A DNA stretch of 64,000 bases from contig MHVH01000005.1 of the NCBI GenBank assembly GCA_001825155.1, forward strand, positions 70,413-134,412. The letters run 5' to 3'. Source of the DNA: Candidatus Zambryskibacteria bacterium RIFCSPHIGHO2_01_FULL_46_25 (GTDB taxonomy: Bacteria; Patescibacteriota; Minisyncoccia; Phycocordibacterales; Zambryskibacteraceae). The translations under genes were made by a program, and so were the position numbers. Below are positions 6,172-54,003 of the stretch, in pieces (within the stretch, counting starts at the first letter, position 1; every line of letters starts with the position of its first letter). The notes under the pieces were generated by a model. It saw only the letters and a program-made list of their open reading frames with translations, searched no databases and was not told the origin of the DNA.

Positions 6172-6207
6172 TGCTCCTCCTTGTGGAGCGAAAAACACTC
6201 TCTTCCT

Positions 6208-6236
6208 ATCTTAGCACAATATGAATATCTTGTCAA
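6208..6236 (-). promoter_or_regulatory. Extended -10 promoter, TTGACAAGAT-N13-TGCTAAGAT family copy 1
   Basis: On the minus strand: TTGACA, 17 bp spacer ending in TGC, then TAAGAT. 22 of 29 positions match the copies at ~18170-18198 and ~18581-18609. Confidence 0.5.
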
Positions 6237-6249
6237 TCCCTGCGGGATT

Positions 6250-6313
6250 GCTTCAGGTTCGCTCGGGCTCTGTGTAAGCAAGCTCCCACATTCCCTCGCT
6301 GCCTGAAGTCAAG
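6250..6313. repeat. 64-nt conserved intergenic element, copy A, immediately 3' of gyrB
   Basis: GCTTCAGGTTCGCTCGGGCTCTGTGTAAGCAAGCTCCCACATTCCCTCGCTGCCTGAAGTCAAG matches 29836..29899 at 61 of 64 positions. Its ends form a CTTCAGG/CCTGAAG inverted repeat. Confidence 0.6.
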
Positions 6314-6321
6314 CACAAGAA

Positions 6322-8289
6322 CTACACATCCAAAACGGCCTTCTTGGCATTTGATTGGATGAAAGATTTGCGGCTGGGCACGTCGGAGCCCATGAGGATG
6401 TCGAAGATGCGGTCCGCTTCGCGGGCGTCCTCCACCTTGACCTGCTTTAGAATCCTTTTTGCCGGGTCCATGGTCGTCTCCCAGAGTTCGTCCGAATTCA
6501 TTTCTCCCAAGCCTTTGTATCGCTGAATATCCCCTGCCTCTTCTTTCCCGACAATCTTTATTTTCTCCTCATCGGAGTAAGCGAAGTACGAATTCTTGCC
6601 CATCTTGATTTTATATAGCGGTGGCTGGGCGATGTAAACATGTCCGGCGTCAATAAGTGGACGGAAGAAGCGGTAAAGCAGGGTAAGAAGAAGGGTGCGG
6701 ATATGCGCGCCGTCAACATCGGCATCAGTGGCAATAATTATCTTGTGGTATCGGAGTTTCGAAATATCAAATGTGTCCCCTATCGCCGTGCCGAAAGCGA
6801 CGACCAGATTTTTGATTTGCTCGGAAGCGAGCATCTTGTCGAGGCGGGCGCGTTCTATATTTAAAATTTTCCCGCGCAAAGGAAGGATGGCTTGTATGCG
6901 ACGATCCCGACCCATCTTGGCCGTGCCACCGGCGGAATCTCCCTCGACAATAAATATTTCCGACTCCTCCGCCGAGCGGCTCTGGCAATCCGCAAGCTTG
7001 CCGGGGAGCGTCATGCCCTCGAGCGCGCCTTTGCGAAGCACGGAGTCCTTGGCGGCTTTGGCGGCCTTCCTCGCTTTCAAGGCTAGAACCACTTTGTTGA
7101 TGATAGATTTCGCGTCGTCCGGATTCTCCTCGAGGAACTGGCTAAAGGCTTCGCCGAAGACGGTCGTAACCATAGCCTGAGCCTCAACGGAACCAAGCTT
7201 CGCCTTGGTCTGACCTTCGAACTGGATTTCGCGCAGTTTGACCGAGAGCACGGCCGTGAGTCCTTCCAGCACGTCGTCGCCGGTGAAATTATCTTCCTTC
7301 TCGCCTACGAGATTATTCTTCCTCGCATAAGTATTAAGAGTGCGGGTAAGAGCCGTTTTGAAGCCGGTAACGTGCGTGCCACCTTCGGCGGTATAGATGT
7401 TATTGGCGAAGGGCAAGAGACGCGATGAGATATCCTCAACGTACTGCAAGGCGACCTCGACCACTTCGTAATCATTGCCGTTCGCCTTCTTTTCAACGTA
7501 GAAAATATTGCGATGCATCGGCTTCAAGTGCTCGTTCTCGAAGCGCACGAGCGAGACGAGCCCGCCCTCGAAATAGAATGAGGTTGAAGGAATGTCGAGA
7601 CCCAATTCTCTTATATAGAAAACATTTTCGTCATCCACTTTCGCTAGATTGCGGGCATCCAGCACCGAGATTCTCAAACCGCGCACGAGGTAGGCCTGCT
7701 GGCGCATGTGAGAGACAATAGTGTCGTAGTTGAAGTTGATGTCCGGGAAGATCTCTTTGTCCGGTTCGAAAGTGATGATGGTACCGGTCTTGTCCGACTT
7801 AGCAATTTTCTTCACAGCACTTTTCTTCTTGCCCTTGCTGTATTCCTGGATATATACGCCGCCATCACGATGCACAACAGCCTTGCAATAAACAGAAAGA
7901 GCGTTGACCACCGAGGCACCGACGCCGTGGAGTCCGCCGGAAATCTTGTAGCCATCGCCGCCGAATTTGCCCCCGGCGTGGAGCGTCGTCATGATAGTCT
8001 CAAGCGCGGAAACCTTCGTCTGTTTGTGAATGTCTACCGGAATGCCTCGACCGTTGTCTACCACACGAACTCTGTTGTTGGGAAGAAGAACGATTTCAAT
8101 GTCATTGGCGAAGCCGCCCATAGCCTCGTCGCGGGAGTTGTCGAAGATTTCCGTAACAAGGTGCTGGAGGCCGTCGGGACCGGTCGTGCCGATGTACATG
8201 CCGGGGCGCTTCCTGACTGGTTCCAAACCTTCTAGGACGGTAATAGATTCAGCGCTATAGCTGCTTGTTTTAGACTTCTTTTCTGCCAT
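6322..8289 (-). CDS. gyrB: DNA gyrase subunit B
   Basis: GHKL ATPase, Toprim and C-terminal domains are all recognisable (e.g. EGDSAGG, PLRGKILN). The start is trimmed to MAEKKSKTSSY...; the track ORF extends upstream to 8364 through a non-homologous leader. Confidence 0.9.
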   Translation of the reverse strand: MAEKKSKTSSYSAESITVLEGLEPVRKRPGMYIGTTGPDGLQHLVTEIFDNSRDEAMGGFANDIEIVLLPNNRVRVVDNGRGIPVDIHKQTKVSALETIMTTLHAGGKFGGDGYKISGGLHGVGASVVNALSVYCKAVVHRDGGVYIQEYSKGKKKSAVKKIAKSDKTGTIITFEPDKEIFPDINFNYDTIVSHMRQQAYLVRGLRISVLDARNLAKVDDENVFYIRELGLDIPSTSFYFEGGLVSLVRFENEHLKPMHRNIFYVEKKANGNDYEVVEVALQYVEDISSRLLPFANNIYTAEGGTHVTGFKTALTRTLNTYARKNNLVGEKEDNFTGDDVLEGLTAVLSVKLREIQFEGQTKAKLGSVEAQAMVTTVFGEAFSQFLEENPDDAKSIINKVVLALKARKAAKAAKDSVLRKGALEGMTLPGKLADCQSRSAEESEIFIVEGDSAGGTAKMGRDRRIQAILPLRGKILNIERARLDKMLASEQIKNLVVAFGTAIGDTFDISKLRYHKIIIATDADVDGAHIRTLLLTLLYRFFRPLIDAGHVYIAQPPLYKIKMGKNSYFAYSDEEKIKIVGKEEAGDIQRYKGLGEMNSDELWETTMDPAKRILKQVKVEDAREADRIFDILMGSDVPSRKSFIQSNAKKAVLDV

Positions 8290-8345
8290 AAATTTATACC
8301 CTATTTTATCATAAACGAGGCTAAAAACCAAGAGATTTGGGGATA

Positions 8346-8525
8346 TGAAAAAGCCCCGCGACAAGCAGCGAGGCCTTGTGATTTGGGGGTTGTTTCCGGA
8401 GAAGGTCCGGCCGAGTCTATGCCCTTTGTGTGGTTTGTCTTTACCGACAATCTTGTCGGCTAGTTTTCCTTGGGGGGCGGTGAGCTCAGCGTTCGTCTAA
8501 GTCCGGAAACAACCCGTTGCGGAAC
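8346..8525 (-). ncRNA. Candidate 6S-like (SsrS-like) small RNA of ~180 nt
   Basis: On the minus strand: TTGCGC, 17 bp spacer, TGC-TATTGT promoter at ~8532-8560. The 5' and 3' ends pair (GGGUUGUUUCCGGA / UCCGGAAACAACCC). There is an apical 7-bp hairpin, CCGACAA-GA-UUGUCGG, and an asymmetric internal region. An intrinsic terminator (GCCTCGC...GCGGGGC then TTTTT) sits ~60 nt before the gyrB start. Class assignment is inference. Confidence 0.3.
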
Positions 8526-18131: not shown

Positions 18132-18169
18132 AAATCCTCCTCGAACAGCGACTGCTGTTCTCTGTTTTT

Positions 18170-18198
18170 ATCCTAGCATACTATATATATCTTGTCAA
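18170..18198 (-). promoter_or_regulatory. Extended -10 promoter, family copy 2 (TTGACAAGAT...TGCTAGGAT)
   Basis: See the copy at 6208..6236. It lies directly downstream of the terminator of the next cassette. Confidence 0.5.
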
Positions 18199-18560: not shown

Positions 18561-18580
18561 GTGTGGCACCTCTACTAATA

Positions 18581-18609
18581 ATCTTAGCATAATATACAAA
18601 TCTTGTCAA
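18581..18609 (-). promoter_or_regulatory. Extended -10 promoter, family copy 3 (TTGACAAGAT...TGCTAAGAT)
   Basis: 22 of 29 positions match the other two copies. Confidence 0.5.
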
Positions 18610-29788: not shown

Positions 29789-29835
29789 TGTATTTATCAT
29801 ACACCCAAACCTGTTTTTTGTCAATGCTTCGCATC

Positions 29836-29899
29836 GCTTCAGGTTCGTTCGGGTTCTGTGTGAGCAAGCTCCCACATTCCCTCGCTGCCTGAAGTCAAG
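29836..29899. repeat. 64-nt conserved intergenic element, copy B, immediately 3' of groEL
   Basis: 61 of 64 positions match copy A at 6250..6313. As with copy A, a short palindrome and then a -35 TTGACA follow it. Confidence 0.6.
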
Positions 29900-29904
29900 T
29901 TCTA

Positions 29905-31572
29905 TTAATAATCCATTCCCCCGTGGGAGTGCGGTAAATCTGGAAAAGGCTTCGCCTTTTCTGGCTCATCCGCTATGGCGACCTCTGTAGTGAGAAGGAT
30001 GGCGACGGCTGAGGCGGCATTCTCAAGCGCCACTCTCGCGACTTTTACCGGGTCGATAATCCCCTCTTCGAACATGTCGGTTACAAACATATCCGTAAGC
30101 GCGTTGTAGCCGGAGTTGGCTTGTCCCTTCATCACTTCATTCAAAACTACTCCATCTTCCTTGCCGGCATTCCTCGCGATTTGGCGCAGAGGTTCCTTGA
30201 GCGCCTCCACCACGGCCATGTAGCCCGCGGCAAACTCTGCCGCCTCCGCGTTCTCGGGAGCGAGTTTGGATTCCTTGGACTCCTTATACTTCGCCTCAAT
30301 TTTCTTTGAAACTTTGGCATAAGCACTGCCGCCACCAGCGACAACTCCCTCGGCAATGGCGGCCTTGGTGGCATTGACGGCATCCTCAATCTTCAATTTC
30401 AAATACTTCATCTCCGTTTCTGTCGCGGCGCCGACCTTGATGACAGCCACACCGCCGGTGAGCTTGCCAATGCGCTCCTTAAGTTTCTCAATATCGAACT
30501 TGGAAACTGAGTTTCCAAGTTGGGCGCGGAGGCTCTCGACTCTCGCAACAATCTCGGCCTTCTTGCCTTTGCCACCTACTATAATCGTAGAGTCCTTCGT
30601 GGAAACCACTCTCGACGCGCGACCGAGCATATTGAATTCCGCCTTTTCGAAAGTGAGACCGACATCTTCCGAAACAACTTTGGCACCAACGGTAGCCGCA
30701 ATGTCCGCCAGCAATTCCTTCTTCTTGTCGCCGTAGCCGGGAGCCTTAATCGCAAGCACATTGAAAGAGCCTCGCAACTTGTTTAAAACAAATGTGGTCA
30801 ACGCTTCCCCATCAACATCTTCGGCGATTATTACAAGGTCTTTCTTATCGCTCGCGGCAAGCTTCTCGAGCAAGGGTAAAATATCCTTGATGACCGAAAT
30901 TTTCCTGTCAGTAATAAGAATGGCCGGGTCCCGATACTCGGCTTCCATCCTCTCGGCATTGGTAATCATATAAGCTGAGATATAGCCCTTGTCGAACTCG
31001 AGCCCTTCGACAATTTCCGAATCAATGCCCATAGACTGGGACTCCTCGACCGTAACCACGCCGTCCTTGCCAATCTTCTTTATGGTATTAGCGATGATTG
31101 TGCCTATCTCTTCCGACTCGGCGGAGATTGTCGCCACTTGCCTCACTTCCGCATCGGCTTTGATGGGCTTCGCCATCTTCTTCAAAGCGTCTATGGCATC
31201 GGCAGCCGCGGCCTCGATACCTCTCCTTATGCCCATGGAATTTGTCCCCGAGGAAGACTTCTTGAATCCCGCTTCGACGAGCGCCTGGGTCAATACAACC
31301 GATGTGGTCGTACCGTCACCGGCGGCGTCATTGGTCTTCGTCGCCACCTCCTTCACAATCTCGGCGCCCATGTTCTCGAACTTGTCGGCAAGCGTTATTT
31401 CCTTGGCAATGGTTACACCATCATTGGTAATAGTCGGCGCGCCATAGCCCTTGTCGAGAACGACGTTTCTGCCTCTCGGACCAATGGTAATCCTCACCGC
31501 GTCAGCAACCGCATCCACTCCGCGCTTAAGCGCCTCCCTGGCATCCTGATTAAAAAGTATTTTCTTTGCCAT
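29905..31572 (-). CDS. groL: Chaperonin GroEL (divergent C-terminus)
   Basis: 555 aa with AAGDGTTT and other GroEL blocks. Confidence 0.9.
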   Translation of the reverse strand: MAKKILFNQDAREALKRGVDAVADAVRITIGPRGRNVVLDKGYGAPTITNDGVTIAKEITLADKFENMGAEIVKEVATKTNDAAGDGTTTSVVLTQALVEAGFKKSSSGTNSMGIRRGIEAAAADAIDALKKMAKPIKADAEVRQVATISAESEEIGTIIANTIKKIGKDGVVTVEESQSMGIDSEIVEGLEFDKGYISAYMITNAERMEAEYRDPAILITDRKISVIKDILPLLEKLAASDKKDLVIIAEDVDGEALTTFVLNKLRGSFNVLAIKAPGYGDKKKELLADIAATVGAKVVSEDVGLTFEKAEFNMLGRASRVVSTKDSTIIVGGKGKKAEIVARVESLRAQLGNSVSKFDIEKLKERIGKLTGGVAVIKVGAATETEMKYLKLKIEDAVNATKAAIAEGVVAGGGSAYAKVSKKIEAKYKESKESKLAPENAEAAEFAAGYMAVVEALKEPLRQIARNAGKEDGVVLNEVMKGQANSGYNALTDMFVTDMFEEGIIDPVKVARVALENAASAVAILLTTEVAIADEPEKAKPFPDLPHSHGGMDY

Positions 31573-40791: not shown

Positions 40792-40883
40792 CTCGACCTG
40801 ATTCAACTGAAGGGCGGCGCGAGGAGATACTCCTCCGCCGCCTTTTCTCATTCCCTTTTATTTTCTACGCAAAAACCAACATA

Positions 40884-40920
40884 CATAATAAAAACGCTAT
40901 AGCGGAATTATTATGTATAT
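40884..40920. repeat. Palindromic 37-bp element flanking PaaX-like gene 1 (3' side)
   Basis: CATAATAAAAACGCTATAGCGGAATTATTATGTATAT. 34 of 37 positions match the copy at 41519..41555. Confidence 0.55.
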
Positions 40921-40928
40921 GAGGAAAG

Positions 40929-41498
40929 TTAATTTATCAAATCGAATTCCATGCGCAGATATTTATCATTCTCAATCTGGTCGGCGATTATGTAGAGCAA
41001 GTCGCGACCGATTCCGTAATCAGTTTTCAGCAAACCGATGACATCTTCGCAGTCATAAGGATAAACCCAGACACTATCTTGCAAGTGGTAAAATCCGGCT
41101 TGCTTGAATATTTCCCTCACCTCATCCCTAATCGCCTTCTTTCTTTCCGGAATATCGAAAATTATTACCCGCCACTTTTTATCCCACTTCTTCGGCTTTT
41201 TCAATTTAAAATCTTCTCTTCTCCAGCGTTCCAAGATTTCCTTACCATCTTTAGCCAACTCATAGTGTCCGTGCTCGAATTTAATTAACCCCTTGCTTCT
41301 CAGACGGCTTGCCGTTGATCTTATTACTTCGTTTTTCCGCGGAGAAGAAGGTAGGTCAAGATCAAGCAGAATATTCAAAACTCTAGGTACGAGAAGCGAA
41401 GCGCCCAGCCGGCCACCCGAAGCGACAGTGAGAAGTATTGCTTCTTGTATTTCCGTTCGCCTGATAATTTTCTTATTTTCTTCTTCCAGTTTCCCCAT
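40929..41498 (-). CDS. PaaX-like regulator (winged-helix N-terminus plus a PaaX_C/Cas2-fold C-terminal domain), paralog 1
   Basis: WDKKWRVIIFDIPERKKAIRDEVREIFKQAGFYHLQDSVWVYPYD matches the PaaX C-terminal signature. It is ~55% identical to 53323..53889. Confidence 0.55.
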   Translation of the reverse strand: MGKLEEENKKIIRRTEIQEAILLTVASGGRLGASLLVPRVLNILLDLDLPSSPRKNEVIRSTASRLRSKGLIKFEHGHYELAKDGKEILERWRREDFKLKKPKKWDKKWRVIIFDIPERKKAIRDEVREIFKQAGFYHLQDSVWVYPYDCEDVIGLLKTDYGIGRDLLYIIADQIENDKYLRMEFDLIN

Positions 41499-41518
41499 AC
41501 TTACATTATAATCAACTA

Positions 41519-41555
41519 CATAATAAAAACGCTATAGCGTTTTTATTATGTATAT
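41519..41555. repeat. Palindromic 37-bp element flanking PaaX-like gene 1 (5' side); candidate operator
   Basis: CATAATAAAAACGC-TATA-GCGTTTTTATTATG is an almost perfect palindrome. It lies ~20 bp upstream of the ATG. Confidence 0.55.
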
Positions 41556-45427: not shown

Positions 45428-45940
45428 ATGATTGCAACAATTTTTCCACTTCTTGGCATCATGGCATTCCTTCTCCTTTGGATCCACTCGATGATGGGGG
45501 TCTTCGAGCCATGGCTAAGACCTCGGATGCCTTTCGACGCCTTCGTCCACTACACGGCGCTCATCATCCTCTTTTGCATTGTCCTCCATCCCCTTCTGCT
45601 CCTCATACTCATCGAGTTCAATTTCGCACTACTCTTCTCCGGCAATCCACTGGCAATATCTCTGGGTGTTGCCGGCTTCCTCCTCCTCATCACATACGAC
45701 ATTGGCAAGGCGCTCAAACGTAGGGAATTCTTCACCCGACACTGGAACACCATATTGCTCATAAGCACAATCGGATTTATCCTTACTTTCTTTCACTCCC
45801 TCATGCTCGGGAGCCACTTGCAGTCCGGCCCCTTGCGCGCGCTCTGGATTTTTTTCGGCACGACCGCCATCCTCGCCACCATTTATACGTATGGGGTGAA
45901 GAGGTTAAGATATAATCAAAACAATGAAAAAAGATTTTGA
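45428..45940 (+). CDS. Hypothetical polytopic membrane protein
   Basis: ORF with ~5 TM. Confidence 0.4.
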   Translation: MIATIFPLLGIMAFLLLWIHSMMGVFEPWLRPRMPFDAFVHYTALIILFCIVLHPLLLLILIEFNFALLFSGNPLAISLGVAGFLLLITYDIGKALKRREFFTRHWNTILLISTIGFILTFFHSLMLGSHLQSGPLRALWIFFGTTAILATIYTYGVKRLRYNQNNEKRF

Positions 45941-46337
45941 TAATTGGAATAGGCGGAAGAAGCAGCTCCACAATAGCGAAGTGATAATCGATGCTCATCC
46001 TCGTGAAGTTTGGTGGTGCTCATTCGGTGTAAACATCGGAGCTGAGACTGATGGCGGAGACAAAAATTTTGAAAGGCCTTGTTTGATTCTAAAAGTTTAT
46101 AACCGAGAAACCATGTTGGCCCTGCCTATTACTGGCAAAGCTAAGCCAGATGATTTTCATTACAAAATTATAGTTACTAGGAAAAAGCCTAACTCTGAAG
46201 AACTAGAGAAAAGAGATGCCTGGGTAAAGCTTACTCAGTCACGAGTGATCAGTAATAAAAGATTGCTTCGTAAAGTAGATATGATTCCTGAAGCGGAGTT
46301 TATTGAAATTAGAAACAGATTTCAAAAGTTCGTGTAA
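45924..46337 (+). CDS. MazF/PemK-like toxin-fold protein (orphan; no antitoxin recognised)
   Basis: REVWWCSFGVNIGAETDGG...RPCLIL resembles the PemK/MazF N-terminal strands. AT-rich. Confidence 0.4.
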   Translation: MKKDFDNWNRRKKQLHNSEVIIDAHPREVWWCSFGVNIGAETDGGDKNFERPCLILKVYNRETMLALPITGKAKPDDFHYKIIVTRKKPNSEELEKRDAWVKLTQSRVISNKRLLRKVDMIPEAEFIEIRNRFQKFV

Positions 46338-46682
46338 AAACATCGGACCCCGCCATTGCTGGCGGGGTCCTCGGAGGCCGAAGCCCTAATGTAATTAGTA
46401 TAGACGTATCGGTTTAAAAGTCAATACGGGTGTGTATAAGCCAAAGGGACCCATTGCTGGGGCCCTAAAGCTAATGAAAGCCGCCGCACCGCAATTTAAG
46501 GAAAAGCAATTATGTACAGTATATCAGTATATTGTGCATTTGCGTTATAAGTTCCCGACCGTGAGGAGTTAACGTATGACAAATTTTCAAGACTTTTCAA
46601 CGGCTCACTCACTTGAGCCGTTCACACAATAAGCCTACGACCGTTTTCTTATTATGTGAAAAGCGAGGAAAGTCTTTGCTAA

Positions 46683-47252
46683 TTATTTTTTGACGGCTTC
46701 GGTAAATGTCAGCTTCGAATAGTCCTTATCGTTTATTCCTTCGAGCGCATAAATTTGCGTCGTGGAAAACTTCTTCATATTCGCCTTGTCCAGACCAAGC
46801 CATTCGATTGCCTTGTCTATTTCCTCCCAGCTATCCGCCTCGATTTCCAGATACGGGTCGAGAAGCGGCCACTCGTCGATATCGAACTCGATGCCGTCTT
46901 TTTCGTAACGAGTGCGCTTATTCTCAAAATAGAATTTATTTGCCAACCCAAGTTCATAGAGAAAAGCCGCCGTCTCACCAAAATCGCTTACTGCAAATTC
47001 GATCTCCTTCATTCCCGCATCATTGCCTGAATTTCCTCGTCTTCCCAAGCGCTGTTTGAAAGAAAGCATGATTTTATCACTCTCATCACGCAGGCGAATC
47101 CAGGCACCCTTTTTATCAAGGCTTAGGTCCGGGTAATCGAAAACCTGTCGTTTGTAGAAATATTCCCCTACTTTTTTAGCTCCAAGTTCAACAAGTTTTT
47201 TCTCCAAAGCCTCCTTATCGACTTTTAGAAATTTAACTTCTATTTCTTCCAT
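46683..47252 (-). CDS. CYTH-domain protein (class IV adenylyl cyclase/triphosphate tunnel metalloenzyme family)
   Basis: An EIEVKF start, and an IRLRDE...LSFKQ segment consistent with the CYTH tunnel fold. Confidence 0.65.
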   Translation of the reverse strand: MEEIEVKFLKVDKEALEKKLVELGAKKVGEYFYKRQVFDYPDLSLDKKGAWIRLRDESDKIMLSFKQRLGRRGNSGNDAGMKEIEFAVSDFGETAAFLYELGLANKFYFENKRTRYEKDGIEFDIDEWPLLDPYLEIEADSWEEIDKAIEWLGLDKANMKKFSTTQIYALEGINDKDYSKLTFTEAVKK

Positions 47253-53160: not shown

Positions 53161-53288
53161 CTTGACCTCCAACGGCAAAGCCGCAATTTGCGTTCTTTTT
53201 TTACTATACACTTGATTATTTCTTCTGTCAAATCACACTATTAAACCAGGTGAAAACCTTCTTTTATTATTTTCAAATACTCCCCATT

Positions 53289-53324
53289 ACGTTATAATAT
53301 TACGAATGTAAGAAAGTAACGTAT
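53289..53324. repeat. Palindromic 36-bp element upstream of PaaX-like gene 2 (contains TATAAT and abuts the ATG)
   Basis: ACGTTATAATATTACGAATGTAAGAAAGTAACGTAT. A similar copy lies at ~53929..53964 (ACGTTATTTTCTTACGAATGTAGGATAATAACGTAT). Confidence 0.5.
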
Positions 53325-53889: not shown

Positions 53890-53928
53890 ATTAAACTTTA
53901 GACAGGGCGTGGGCACATTACATGCCAT

Positions 53929-53964
53929 ACGTTATTTTCTTACGAATGTAGGATAATAACGTAT
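53929..53964. repeat. Second copy of the paralog-2 palindromic element, in the promoter region of the 54004 gene
   Basis: It lies ~40 nt upstream of the ATG at 54004. Confidence 0.5.
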
Positions 53965-54003
53965 TAAGCAACCTGCCAAAATTATTTATGGTATTATTTT
54001 GAT

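Follow-up and report, generated by a model that had tools for sequence, protein, structure and literature searches.

The 64,000-nucleotide stretch analysed here, hereafter the window (contig MHVH01000005.1, positions 70,413 to 134,412, of the Candidatus Zambryskibacteria bacterium RIFCSPHIGHO2_01_FULL_46_25 assembly GCA_001825155.1, a Patescibacteria genome from an aquifer), harbors two paralogous genes on opposite strands, each bracketed by two copies of a palindrome of its own. The first gene (P1, 40929..41498, minus strand) codes for a protein of 189 aa and the second (P2, 53323..53889, plus strand) for one of 188 aa, which confirms the pair of ~188-aa paralogs pointed out in a preliminary description of this DNA. 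They share 56% identity (BLASTP, 9e-78), with 45% over the N-terminal 100 residues and 69% over the remainder; mean identity is 0.44 in the divergent N-terminal half vs 0.65 in the conserved Cas2-like half.

Both proteins combine a predicted winged helix-turn-helix (wHTH) domain (residues ~1-95) with a Cas2-like domain (residues 103-177), in agreement with the PaaX-like architecture proposed earlier. The latter domain is matched above the gathering score by the Pfam model PaaX_M (PF20803, “PaaX central Cas2-like domain”; 7.1e-21 for P1 and 2.2e-12 for P2). Winged-helix matches at residues ~58-94 (HTH_45, CggR_N) are weak and sub-threshold, and the Pfam PaaX N-terminal model matches neither protein. 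Similarly, no Pfam match to the ligand domain PaaX_C is present in P1 or P2, both of which stop ~12 residues beyond the Cas2-like domain. With the NCBIfam models, the PaaX equivalog TIGR02277 gives 41.7 and 29.2 bits for a cut-off of 264.55, and the Cas2 model TIGR01573 gives 24.9 bits for P1 and 23.6 bits for P2 for a cut-off of 24.5, over model positions 2-39 of 96 only; the Pfam CRISPR_Cas2 match lies under its cut-off. An AlphaFold2 model (pLDDT 73) predicts helices at residues 2-28, 33-45 and 55-68, a beta wing at 72-81 and a helix at 83-95, forming the wHTH, followed by a Cas2-like beta-alpha-beta-beta-alpha-beta arrangement (109-172). Compared with the PDB by Foldseek, the model is closest in fold to E. 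coli PaaX (8A39) and Rv0674 (3KFW), and next to winged-helix domains and Cas2 proteins; the predicted wHTH is aligned with 8A39, the cullin WHB domain and PadR, and PaaX (8A39) is also the best PDB match by sequence profile. Conserved features of the Cas2-like domain include D115, the Asp of Cas2 type with which beta1 ends, and YPYDCED, a motif that is invariant. No Pfam match to Y1_Tnp or HUH proteins was obtained, and no conserved His pair is found among the family columns conserved at 95% or more. The 64 kb of the window contain no CRISPR repeat array, no Cas1-like open reading frame (ORF) and no other cas gene, and no paa genes occur among the window ORFs or the called neighbours.

Two direct copies of a 39-nt element (40882-40920 and 41517-41555, 92% identical) flank P1 and two of a 37-nt element (53288-53324 and 53928-53964, 84% identical) flank P2. 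Neither element has a further copy elsewhere in the 64 kb (0 expected from 100 shuffles), and each gene does therefore have a locus-specific palindrome on both sides, as had been noticed. The upstream palindrome of P1 (41517..41552) is a perfect 18+18 dyad, TACATAATAAAAACGCTA|TAGCGTTTTTATTATGTA, located 19-54 nt 5' of the ATG, over the -35 region and spacer of a putative leaderless-type promoter. The -10 hexamer of this promoter, TATAAT (41505..41510, minus strand), is read from the sequence 6 nt 5' of the ATG and was missed by a consensus promoter scan because of a poor -35. The downstream palindrome of P1 (40882..40917) begins ~11 nt past the stop codon, differs from the upstream copy by 3 mismatches and is followed by the terminator of a convergent gene. 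At the second locus, the upstream palindrome (53288..53323) holds the -10 TATAAT (53293-53298), itself preceded at 17 nt by a -35 (TTTTCA, 53270-53275), and shares its final base with the ATG, of which it is the A; the preliminary description likewise had this copy contain the -10 and abut the ATG. The downstream copy (53928..53963) lies 38 nt past the stop codon and 40 nt 5' of the ATG of gene 54004, which codes for a secreted protein. It had been placed in the promoter of that gene; it is near, but the likely promoter (TGGTATTAT, 53989-53997, 6 nt ahead of the ATG and leaderless-type like that of P1) leaves the palindrome 5' of the -35 position and not within. An Rfam scan of the window and of four other loci identified only tRNAs, and no known RNA family at the palindromes.

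These two genes belong to a large family. A search of 5.8 billion proteins retrieved 1749 relatives, and an exhaustive search of 1.84 billion representatives of 50% identity clusters gave 3283 matches, which nearly all measure 175-205 aa and align over their full length. Relatives are encoded at 593 loci or more in contigs taken from one genome per species; the 80 best of these loci all lie in metagenome-assembled genomes (MAGs) of Patescibacteria, with up to 7 loci per MAG, and the family was not found in viral contigs. Many members (P0005, P0015, P0033, P0035, P0057 and others) bear the NCBI/JGI name “CRISPR-associated endonuclease Cas2”, although they are wHTH fusions with no cas neighbours; these public names are very probably mis-annotations. 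The bracketing by palindromes was assessed for 82 genes by taking the best ungapped match between the 150 nt upstream and the 150 nt downstream, with flanks of different loci as the null. In 68 of the 82, the matched pair exceeds the 99th percentile of this cross-locus null, and the matches are palindromes of 34-42 nt. The arms differ between paralogs of one genome, and the notion of a diversifying family is supported.

Comparison of the upstream and downstream copies of 70 loci indicates a bipartite half-site. The two copies are 0.9-1.0 identical at positions 1-4 on either side of the dyad and 0.83-0.99 identical at positions 12-17, falling to 0.56-0.83 at positions 5-11, and no locus departs from C(-3) and G(+3). 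The outer arm (-18..-12 from the dyad) exists in many versions (TACGTTA, TACATTA, TACATAA, CACACAA, CTTGTTTA, TTGCAAT and others); a looser AT-rich linker separates it from the inner arm (-7..-1), and the central dinucleotide is variable. The outer arms thus lie ~23-24 bp apart inside palindromes of 36-38 bp. The upstream palindromes overlap either the -10 and ATG or the -35 of their own gene: the dyad is 17 nt from the ATG in 44 of the 70 loci, so that the palindrome ends in ...ACGTATG and carries TATAAT within its left arm, and it is 36-38 nt upstream of the ATG in about ten loci, including that of P1. Just beyond the downstream copy of locus L091 (5100-5180), three direct repeats TCTACAAA(T/C)T resemble half-sites of the palindrome of that locus, TGTACAAA.

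Evidence that protein and palindrome evolve together comes from covariation, calculated as mutual information on 85 non-redundant proteins having both palindromes. The top values connect base -5 with residue 125 and base -15 with residue 58. Residue 58 lies in the third wHTH helix, the recognition helix; Tyr accompanies G(-15) in 47 of 49 cases and Val or Ile accompanies A(-15) in 22 of 23. Residue 125 belongs to helix alpha1 of the Cas2-like domain, beside the invariant R124; Asp is found with C(-5) (33 cases), Lys with G (3/3), and Asn, Arg, Thr or Glu with T. Other high-scoring residues (128, 129, 132 and 133) lie in the same helix at helical spacing. The signal survives a phylogenetic control based on a neighbour-joining tree of 168 branches built without the covarying columns. 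On this tree, residue 125 changes 17 times and base -5 13 times, ten times on the same branch (1.3 expected), while residue 58 changes 6 times and base -15 8 times, with four shared changes (0.3 expected); for mismatched control pairs, the coincident changes number 0 and 2. The window paralogs both fit this code, P1 having V58 and D125 (TACA...ACGC) and P2 Y58 and R125 (TACG...TTACG). The pairings (Asp-C, Lys-G) are chemically ordinary and would correspond to direct contacts; the data suggest that a Cas2-fold domain reads DNA bases here. Co-evolution of each protein with its palindrome, already envisaged in the preliminary description for what it took to be repressors, is therefore backed by a residue-base code, the repressor role itself remaining a probable one.

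The function of the downstream copy is less evident. Its being the operator of the next gene was considered and rejected as a general rule, since in 43 of 74 loci the gene on that side is convergent and the copy is thus not generally a promoter element of that gene. An intrinsic terminator was also rejected, a TTTT tract following 21% of the copies vs 19% in the control. TATAAT is usually absent from the downstream copy, and perfect 36-mer palindromes are more frequent there (11/95) than upstream (2/96), reaching 10-15% of downstream copies and of the solitary copies described below. Candidate roles include DNA looping, insulation, or that of a terminal repeat of a slowly mobile cassette.

Palindromes of the same type also occur away from the family genes. 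A scan of the window with a position matrix trained on other loci gave six of them, namely the four flanking copies and two orphans with a spacing of 82 nt, in the region flanked by the 3' ends of a PemK toxin gene (45924-46337) and a CYTH gene (46683-47252). The first orphan (46540-46577, core 46541..46576) reads TGCGTTATAAGTTCCCGA|CCGTGAGGAGTTAACGTA and precedes ATGACAAATTTTCAAGA, which may be what is left of a regulator 5' end after decay; the second (46622-46659, core 46623..46658) reads CACACAATAAGCCTACGA|CCGTTTTCTTATTATGTG. By the code, neither would be cognate to P1 or P2, and the first is predicted to be read by a Y58/D125 protein. A palindrome-centred scan of metagenome contigs with the pattern ATACGTTA-N8-C-N4-G-N8-TAACGTAT, from which 80 loci were fetched, gave 128 family-type palindromes, of which 50 flank a family gene and 78 do not. 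These 78 solos are intergenic, in tandem (30), convergent (12) or divergent (10) contexts. Each variant is rare, and overall about one solo is present per 30-80 kb of the DNA scanned. One of them (L114:1301-1338) is identical at 37 of 38 positions to the downstream copy of P1; the contig that carries it belongs to a Zambryskibacteria MAG with locus-tag prefix A3A26, obtained from the groundwater metagenome that also yielded the window, and has another site resembling the palindrome of P2. The wider search suggested by the preliminary description has yielded many paralogs, but also palindromes with no regulator alongside. Its picture of self-contained cassettes consequently does not hold, given the 78 palindromes out of 128 with no adjoining regulator, the near-identical copy standing alone on the A3A26 contig and the two window orphans.

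Two explanations of the solos were discarded. They are not 5' modules belonging to other genes, since only 3 of 78 have an ORF (50 aa or longer) that starts at the palindrome end; the ...ACGTATG end of solos results from the extension of the palindrome to CAT...ATG. Nor are they all decayed cassettes, a gene 5' remnant being present on only ~9 of 249 palindrome sides, and in 3 of these the sequence is that of a real gene located at the end of a contig. Decayed regulator 5' ends do follow a few solos, among them possibly the window orphan at 46540. Some palindromes bracket other genes, as identical pairs (38/38) surround HicB/HicA (L099), a cytidine-deaminase-like gene with its ATG at the palindrome end (L167) and a gene coding for a 451-aa protein (L093). 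In regulator cassettes located elsewhere, at unlinked loci, the downstream copy matches the palindromes around these foreign genes at 37 of 38 positions. The HicB/HicA pair with its identical palindromes lies beside RecR (L099:1067-1676, L158:2226-2776). A strain 99.65% identical lacks 938 nt, corresponding to a gene for a 246-aa protein and one palindrome copy; the palindrome, together with ~85 nt of the RecR 3' end, is duplicated. Third cognate copies were identified at the far end of a divergent Obg-GatB operon (L014) and around a tRNA (L060), consistent with operator use beyond self-regulation. At locus L021 (1383-2138), a GC-rich segment of ~750 nt with no convincing ORF and no Rfam match separates a third palindrome copy from a TrmB-like gene.

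Doublets, in which two different palindromes follow each other with an exact 36-nt period, were found 21 times in 119 fetched loci (among others L095, L097, L114, L119, L120, L125, L127, L133, L150, L155, L156 and L169), whereas other close spacings are represented by 5 pairs only. They often lie between terminator hairpins. None is present in 80 cassette-centred loci or adjoins an intact cassette, and a doublet in L156 is located in the intergenic space that holds a cassette in L023, L065 and L074. A homology of the window orphan pair with the doublet locus L155 was looked for and rejected.

At the population time-scale the cassettes appear stable. Neither the position nor the orientation of the P1 cassette varies among the 22-23 contigs representing the window's population, which show no presence/absence or inversion polymorphism. 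The immediate neighbours of 74 cassettes represent 120 Pfam families of housekeeping character that recur across genomes (PGK seven times; MYG1, Obg, class II aminoacyl-tRNA synthetases and HIT six times each), and no recombinase is present among the top families. This recurrence indicates that paralog lineages hold conserved positions. One syntenic locus, GatB-(Obg)-REG-MYG1-DsbB-x-VTT-SecA, is the home of the closest homologs of P1, which itself lies elsewhere. The window neighbours have no synteny match with 80 homologous loci, and the window cassettes are therefore not directly comparable with orthologous loci.

Between species, however, there is real gain and loss of cassettes, delimited by the palindromes. 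An additional cassette separates VTT from SecA in locus L091, against ~45 nt in L089 and L090, and another separates RecR from its neighbour in L032, against a gap of 10 nt in L099; both empty sites lack any palindrome. At another locus, L145 and L057 harbor the palindrome-gene-palindrome arrangement, whereas L162 and L101 have collinear flanks, no gene and a single palindrome (L162:4453-4630 vs L145:2169-2978), the left part of which resembles the upstream copy and the right part the downstream copy. Six genomes have a cassette at this locus, so that it is more parsimonious to assume that the gene was lost through recombination of one palindrome with the other. In L145, the 3' end of the left-hand gene (GGGVMDK(I/V)LK) is duplicated beyond the cassette, and L099 also has a duplicated gene 3' end. 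Outer direct repeats of 20-80 nt, lying beyond the palindromes, were found at 6 of 74 cassette loci (0.7 expected) and at neither window cassette. The earlier suggestion that the cassettes may be mobile finds no support at the population time-scale, with 22 contigs alike in place and orientation, or in the conserved synteny; between species, gain and loss do occur.

The account that we favor, with moderate confidence, is that of a lineage-specific expansion of PaaX-type autorepressors that have lost the ligand domain, each having its own bipartite palindrome and a second site for looping or roadblock. What the data themselves establish is the domain architecture, the bracketing across the family, the covariation of residues with bases, the overlap with promoters, and the existence of solo sites and of filled and empty loci. 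Each protein would bind as a homodimer to its cognate palindrome of 36-38 bp, the outer module (-18..-12, e.g. TACGTTA or TACATAA) being read by the wHTH recognition helix and the inner module (-7..-1, with the invariant C -3 and G +3) by helix alpha1 of a Cas2-like domain placed on the dyad. Given that the upstream site overlaps with the start codon and -10 or, in the variant of leaderless type, with the -35, binding is proposed to repress transcription of the protein's own gene, as PaaX does at Px. The downstream site, under the same sequence constraint, is presumably bound by the same protein and would permit a repression loop around the gene or act as a roadblock, making the autoregulated cassette independent of neighbouring transcription. 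Other cognate sites could form a small regulon for each paralog, some bracketing other genes and others being scars of lost cassettes. Several observations weigh against this account. Solos are found in convergent as well as in divergent and tandem regions, which is unexpected for a pure operator; the downstream copy lies outside the promoter of the neighbour in 58% of loci and is not a U-tract terminator; and the 21 doublets of different palindromes are left unaccounted for. Moreover, D115 and YPYDCED are kept, though simple DNA binding may not require such residues, loss of the PaaX ligand domain leaves no obvious signal input, and the confidence of the AlphaFold2 model is only moderate.

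The main rival explanation is a slowly mobile or recombining cassette, in which the protein is a site-specific DNA enzyme and the palindromes are its terminal or subterminal repeats for excision and integration. The wHTH would target the palindromes and the Cas2-like domain would nick or cleave, in a manner recalling REP/RAYT or Xer-dif systems, and the solos, doublets and bracketed foreign genes would be products of this activity. We regard this explanation as possible, though doubtful. It draws on the precise filled and empty pair of L145 and L057 vs L162 and L101 with its single hybrid palindrome, on the cassettes present or absent between otherwise adjacent genes, on the identical pairs around HicAB, the deaminase and the 451-aa gene with their near-identity to the downstream copy of regulator cassettes, and on the excess of outer direct repeats together with the duplicated gene 3' ends. 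The exact period of the doublets, one of which sits in the syntenic slot of a cassette, the proportion of perfect 36-mers among downstream and solo copies, the conserved Cas2-type Asp and acidic and Tyr residues with a P1 score reaching the NCBIfam cut-off for Cas2, and the location of the closest homologs of P1 at a different locus (Obg-REG-MYG1) point in the same direction. On the other hand, neither the protein nor its neighbours have a recombinase, transposase or HUH motif, the contigs of the window's population (22-23) show no presence/absence or inversion polymorphism, paralog lineages are syntenic across species, viral contigs lack the family, each palindrome variant has few copies per genome, unlike REPs, and the window cassettes lack outer direct repeats; loss between direct repeats of 36 bp needs no dedicated enzyme. 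A more specific proposal, which we consider unlikely, is that the wHTH-Cas2-like proteins are also a new sequence-specific DNA enzyme, sitting as a dimer on the 36-bp palindrome with the Cas2 fold on the dyad and acting at the repeat or its edges. In that case its own gene, toxin-antitoxin pairs and other genes would have been inserted between two repeat copies and later lost, leaving one copy. If true, this would represent a Cas1-independent, repeat-duplicating cassette system in a lineage largely without CRISPR, perhaps related to the step of CRISPR adaptation in which repeats are recognised.

Two further explanations are much less probable. The upstream copy alone could be an operator, with the downstream copy being a 3' RNA hairpin involved in termination or mRNA stability and similar to the former through duplication only. 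The downstream palindromes of the window would indeed fold into stable hairpins if transcribed (z-scores of -3.1 and -3.8), and the upstream copy of P1 fits a terminator-like pattern. Yet downstream copies keep exactly the positions that covary with the protein, the linker of the would-be stem is only 0.6-0.7 complementary, U-tracts are not enriched and solos occur in divergent promoter regions too, which makes this reading very unlikely. Still more improbable is a single-gene addiction or defence module, in which a toxic nuclease resembling Cas2 or VapD is curbed by tight autorepression through the fused wHTH. It would account for the many paralogs in small genomes (up to seven per MAG) and for the co-location with toxin-antitoxin genes (HicAB between the same palindromes, PemK beside the window orphans), and Cas2-like matches are reported by PADLOC and NCBIfam. 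However, PADLOC gives partial Cas2 profiles only and no system model, the positions are syntenic with housekeeping neighbours, and covariation of the Cas2-like helix with DNA bases is not expected of a toxin domain.

Two other repeats of the window are worth recording. A 67-nt repeat with 94% identity between its copies (6247-6313 and 29833-29899) contains the inverted repeat CTTCAGG...CCTGAAG and is located immediately 3' of the minus-strand housekeeping genes gyrB (6322..8364) and groEL (29905..31572). A 39-nt repeat present in three copies (6198-6236, 18160-18198 and 18571-18609) reads TTGACAAGATAT...TG-TAAGAT on the minus strand and corresponds to a strong sigma-70-type promoter.

To our knowledge, almost nothing is known of gene regulation in the bacteria of the candidate phyla radiation. 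The present family, which is large and has up to 7 paralogs in genomes expected to be smaller than 1 Mb, may therefore represent one of the principal groups of proteins that bind specific DNA sequences in them. It offers a testable code, in which Tyr vs Val or Ile at residue 58 specifies G vs A at -15, and Asp, Lys, or Asn/Arg/Thr at residue 125 specifies C, G or T at -5. The sets of matched repressors and 36-bp operators would constitute a natural library of orthogonal parts, and the “Cas2” names, very probably wrong, could inflate CRISPR counts in these phyla. Should the bracketing palindromes be recombination substrates, they would define a new class of gene cassette. The domains themselves are known already, and UniRef uses the name “PaaX-like central Cas2-like domain-containing”. 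In the literature searched, we found no description of the family-wide bracketing, of the residue-base code and base reading by a Cas2 fold, of the solos and doublets, or of the palindrome-delimited gain and loss.

Among known systems, the phenylacetyl-CoA-responsive repressor PaaX of E. coli and Pseudomonas shares with this family the Cas2-like PaaX_M domain, preceded by a wHTH that is, in the family, predicted from the structure model. The operator of E. coli PaaX, TGATTC-N27-GAATCA, consists of two inverted repeats in 39 bp, and PaaX represses its own promoter Px (PMC9493321). The operators predicted here from the sequence are likewise far-spaced inverted repeats over the promoter of their own gene, with ~23-24 bp between the arms. 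In contrast to PaaX, the family proteins have no PaaX_C ligand domain and end at 189 aa, no paa genes are found nearby, and alignment reveals a Cas2-type FDIPE motif that is missing in E. coli PaaX. The extra inner half-site, apparently read by the Cas2-like domain, the putative operators on both sides of the gene and the many paralogs per genome also distinguish them. Cas2 has the same ferredoxin-like beta-alpha-beta-beta-alpha-beta fold, and the Cas2 HMM match spans beta1-alpha1 with the Asp at the end of beta1; it covers ~37 residues only, and the family differs from Cas2 by its fusion to a wHTH and by the absence of cas1, CRISPR array and cas genes in the window. In REP/REPIN-RAYT systems, a gene is flanked by its own class of palindromic repeats, with several gene and repeat pairs per genome and solo repeats in intergenic regions (PMC3337134). 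Here too, short single-copy genes (~500-570 bp) lie between their own palindromes, distinct genes of one genome each have their own repeat, and solos are intergenic. The family protein is not an HUH/Y1 transposase, however, each variant has a few copies per genome instead of hundreds, the repeats are near-perfect dyads over the promoter of their own gene, and doublets associate two different palindromes head-to-tail rather than inverted REPs of one class. The pdif modules of Acinetobacter and integron cassettes are also small modules (toxin-antitoxin pairs, regulators) between short palindromic sites, and resemble the present cassettes in that presence and absence are delimited by the sites and that toxin-antitoxin genes are bracketed. 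The sites of the family are instead 36-38 bp long with a C-N4-G core, which sets them apart from attC and from Xer sites of 28 bp. Site variants are specific to the module, with both flanking sites belonging to that same module, and no link to an integrase or Xer was found, with no tyrosine or serine recombinase in or beside the cassettes. As the family falls outside PaaX proper, Cas2 and RAYT, we class it as a PaaX-like putative repressor with its operator, with a modest chance that it represents something categorically new.

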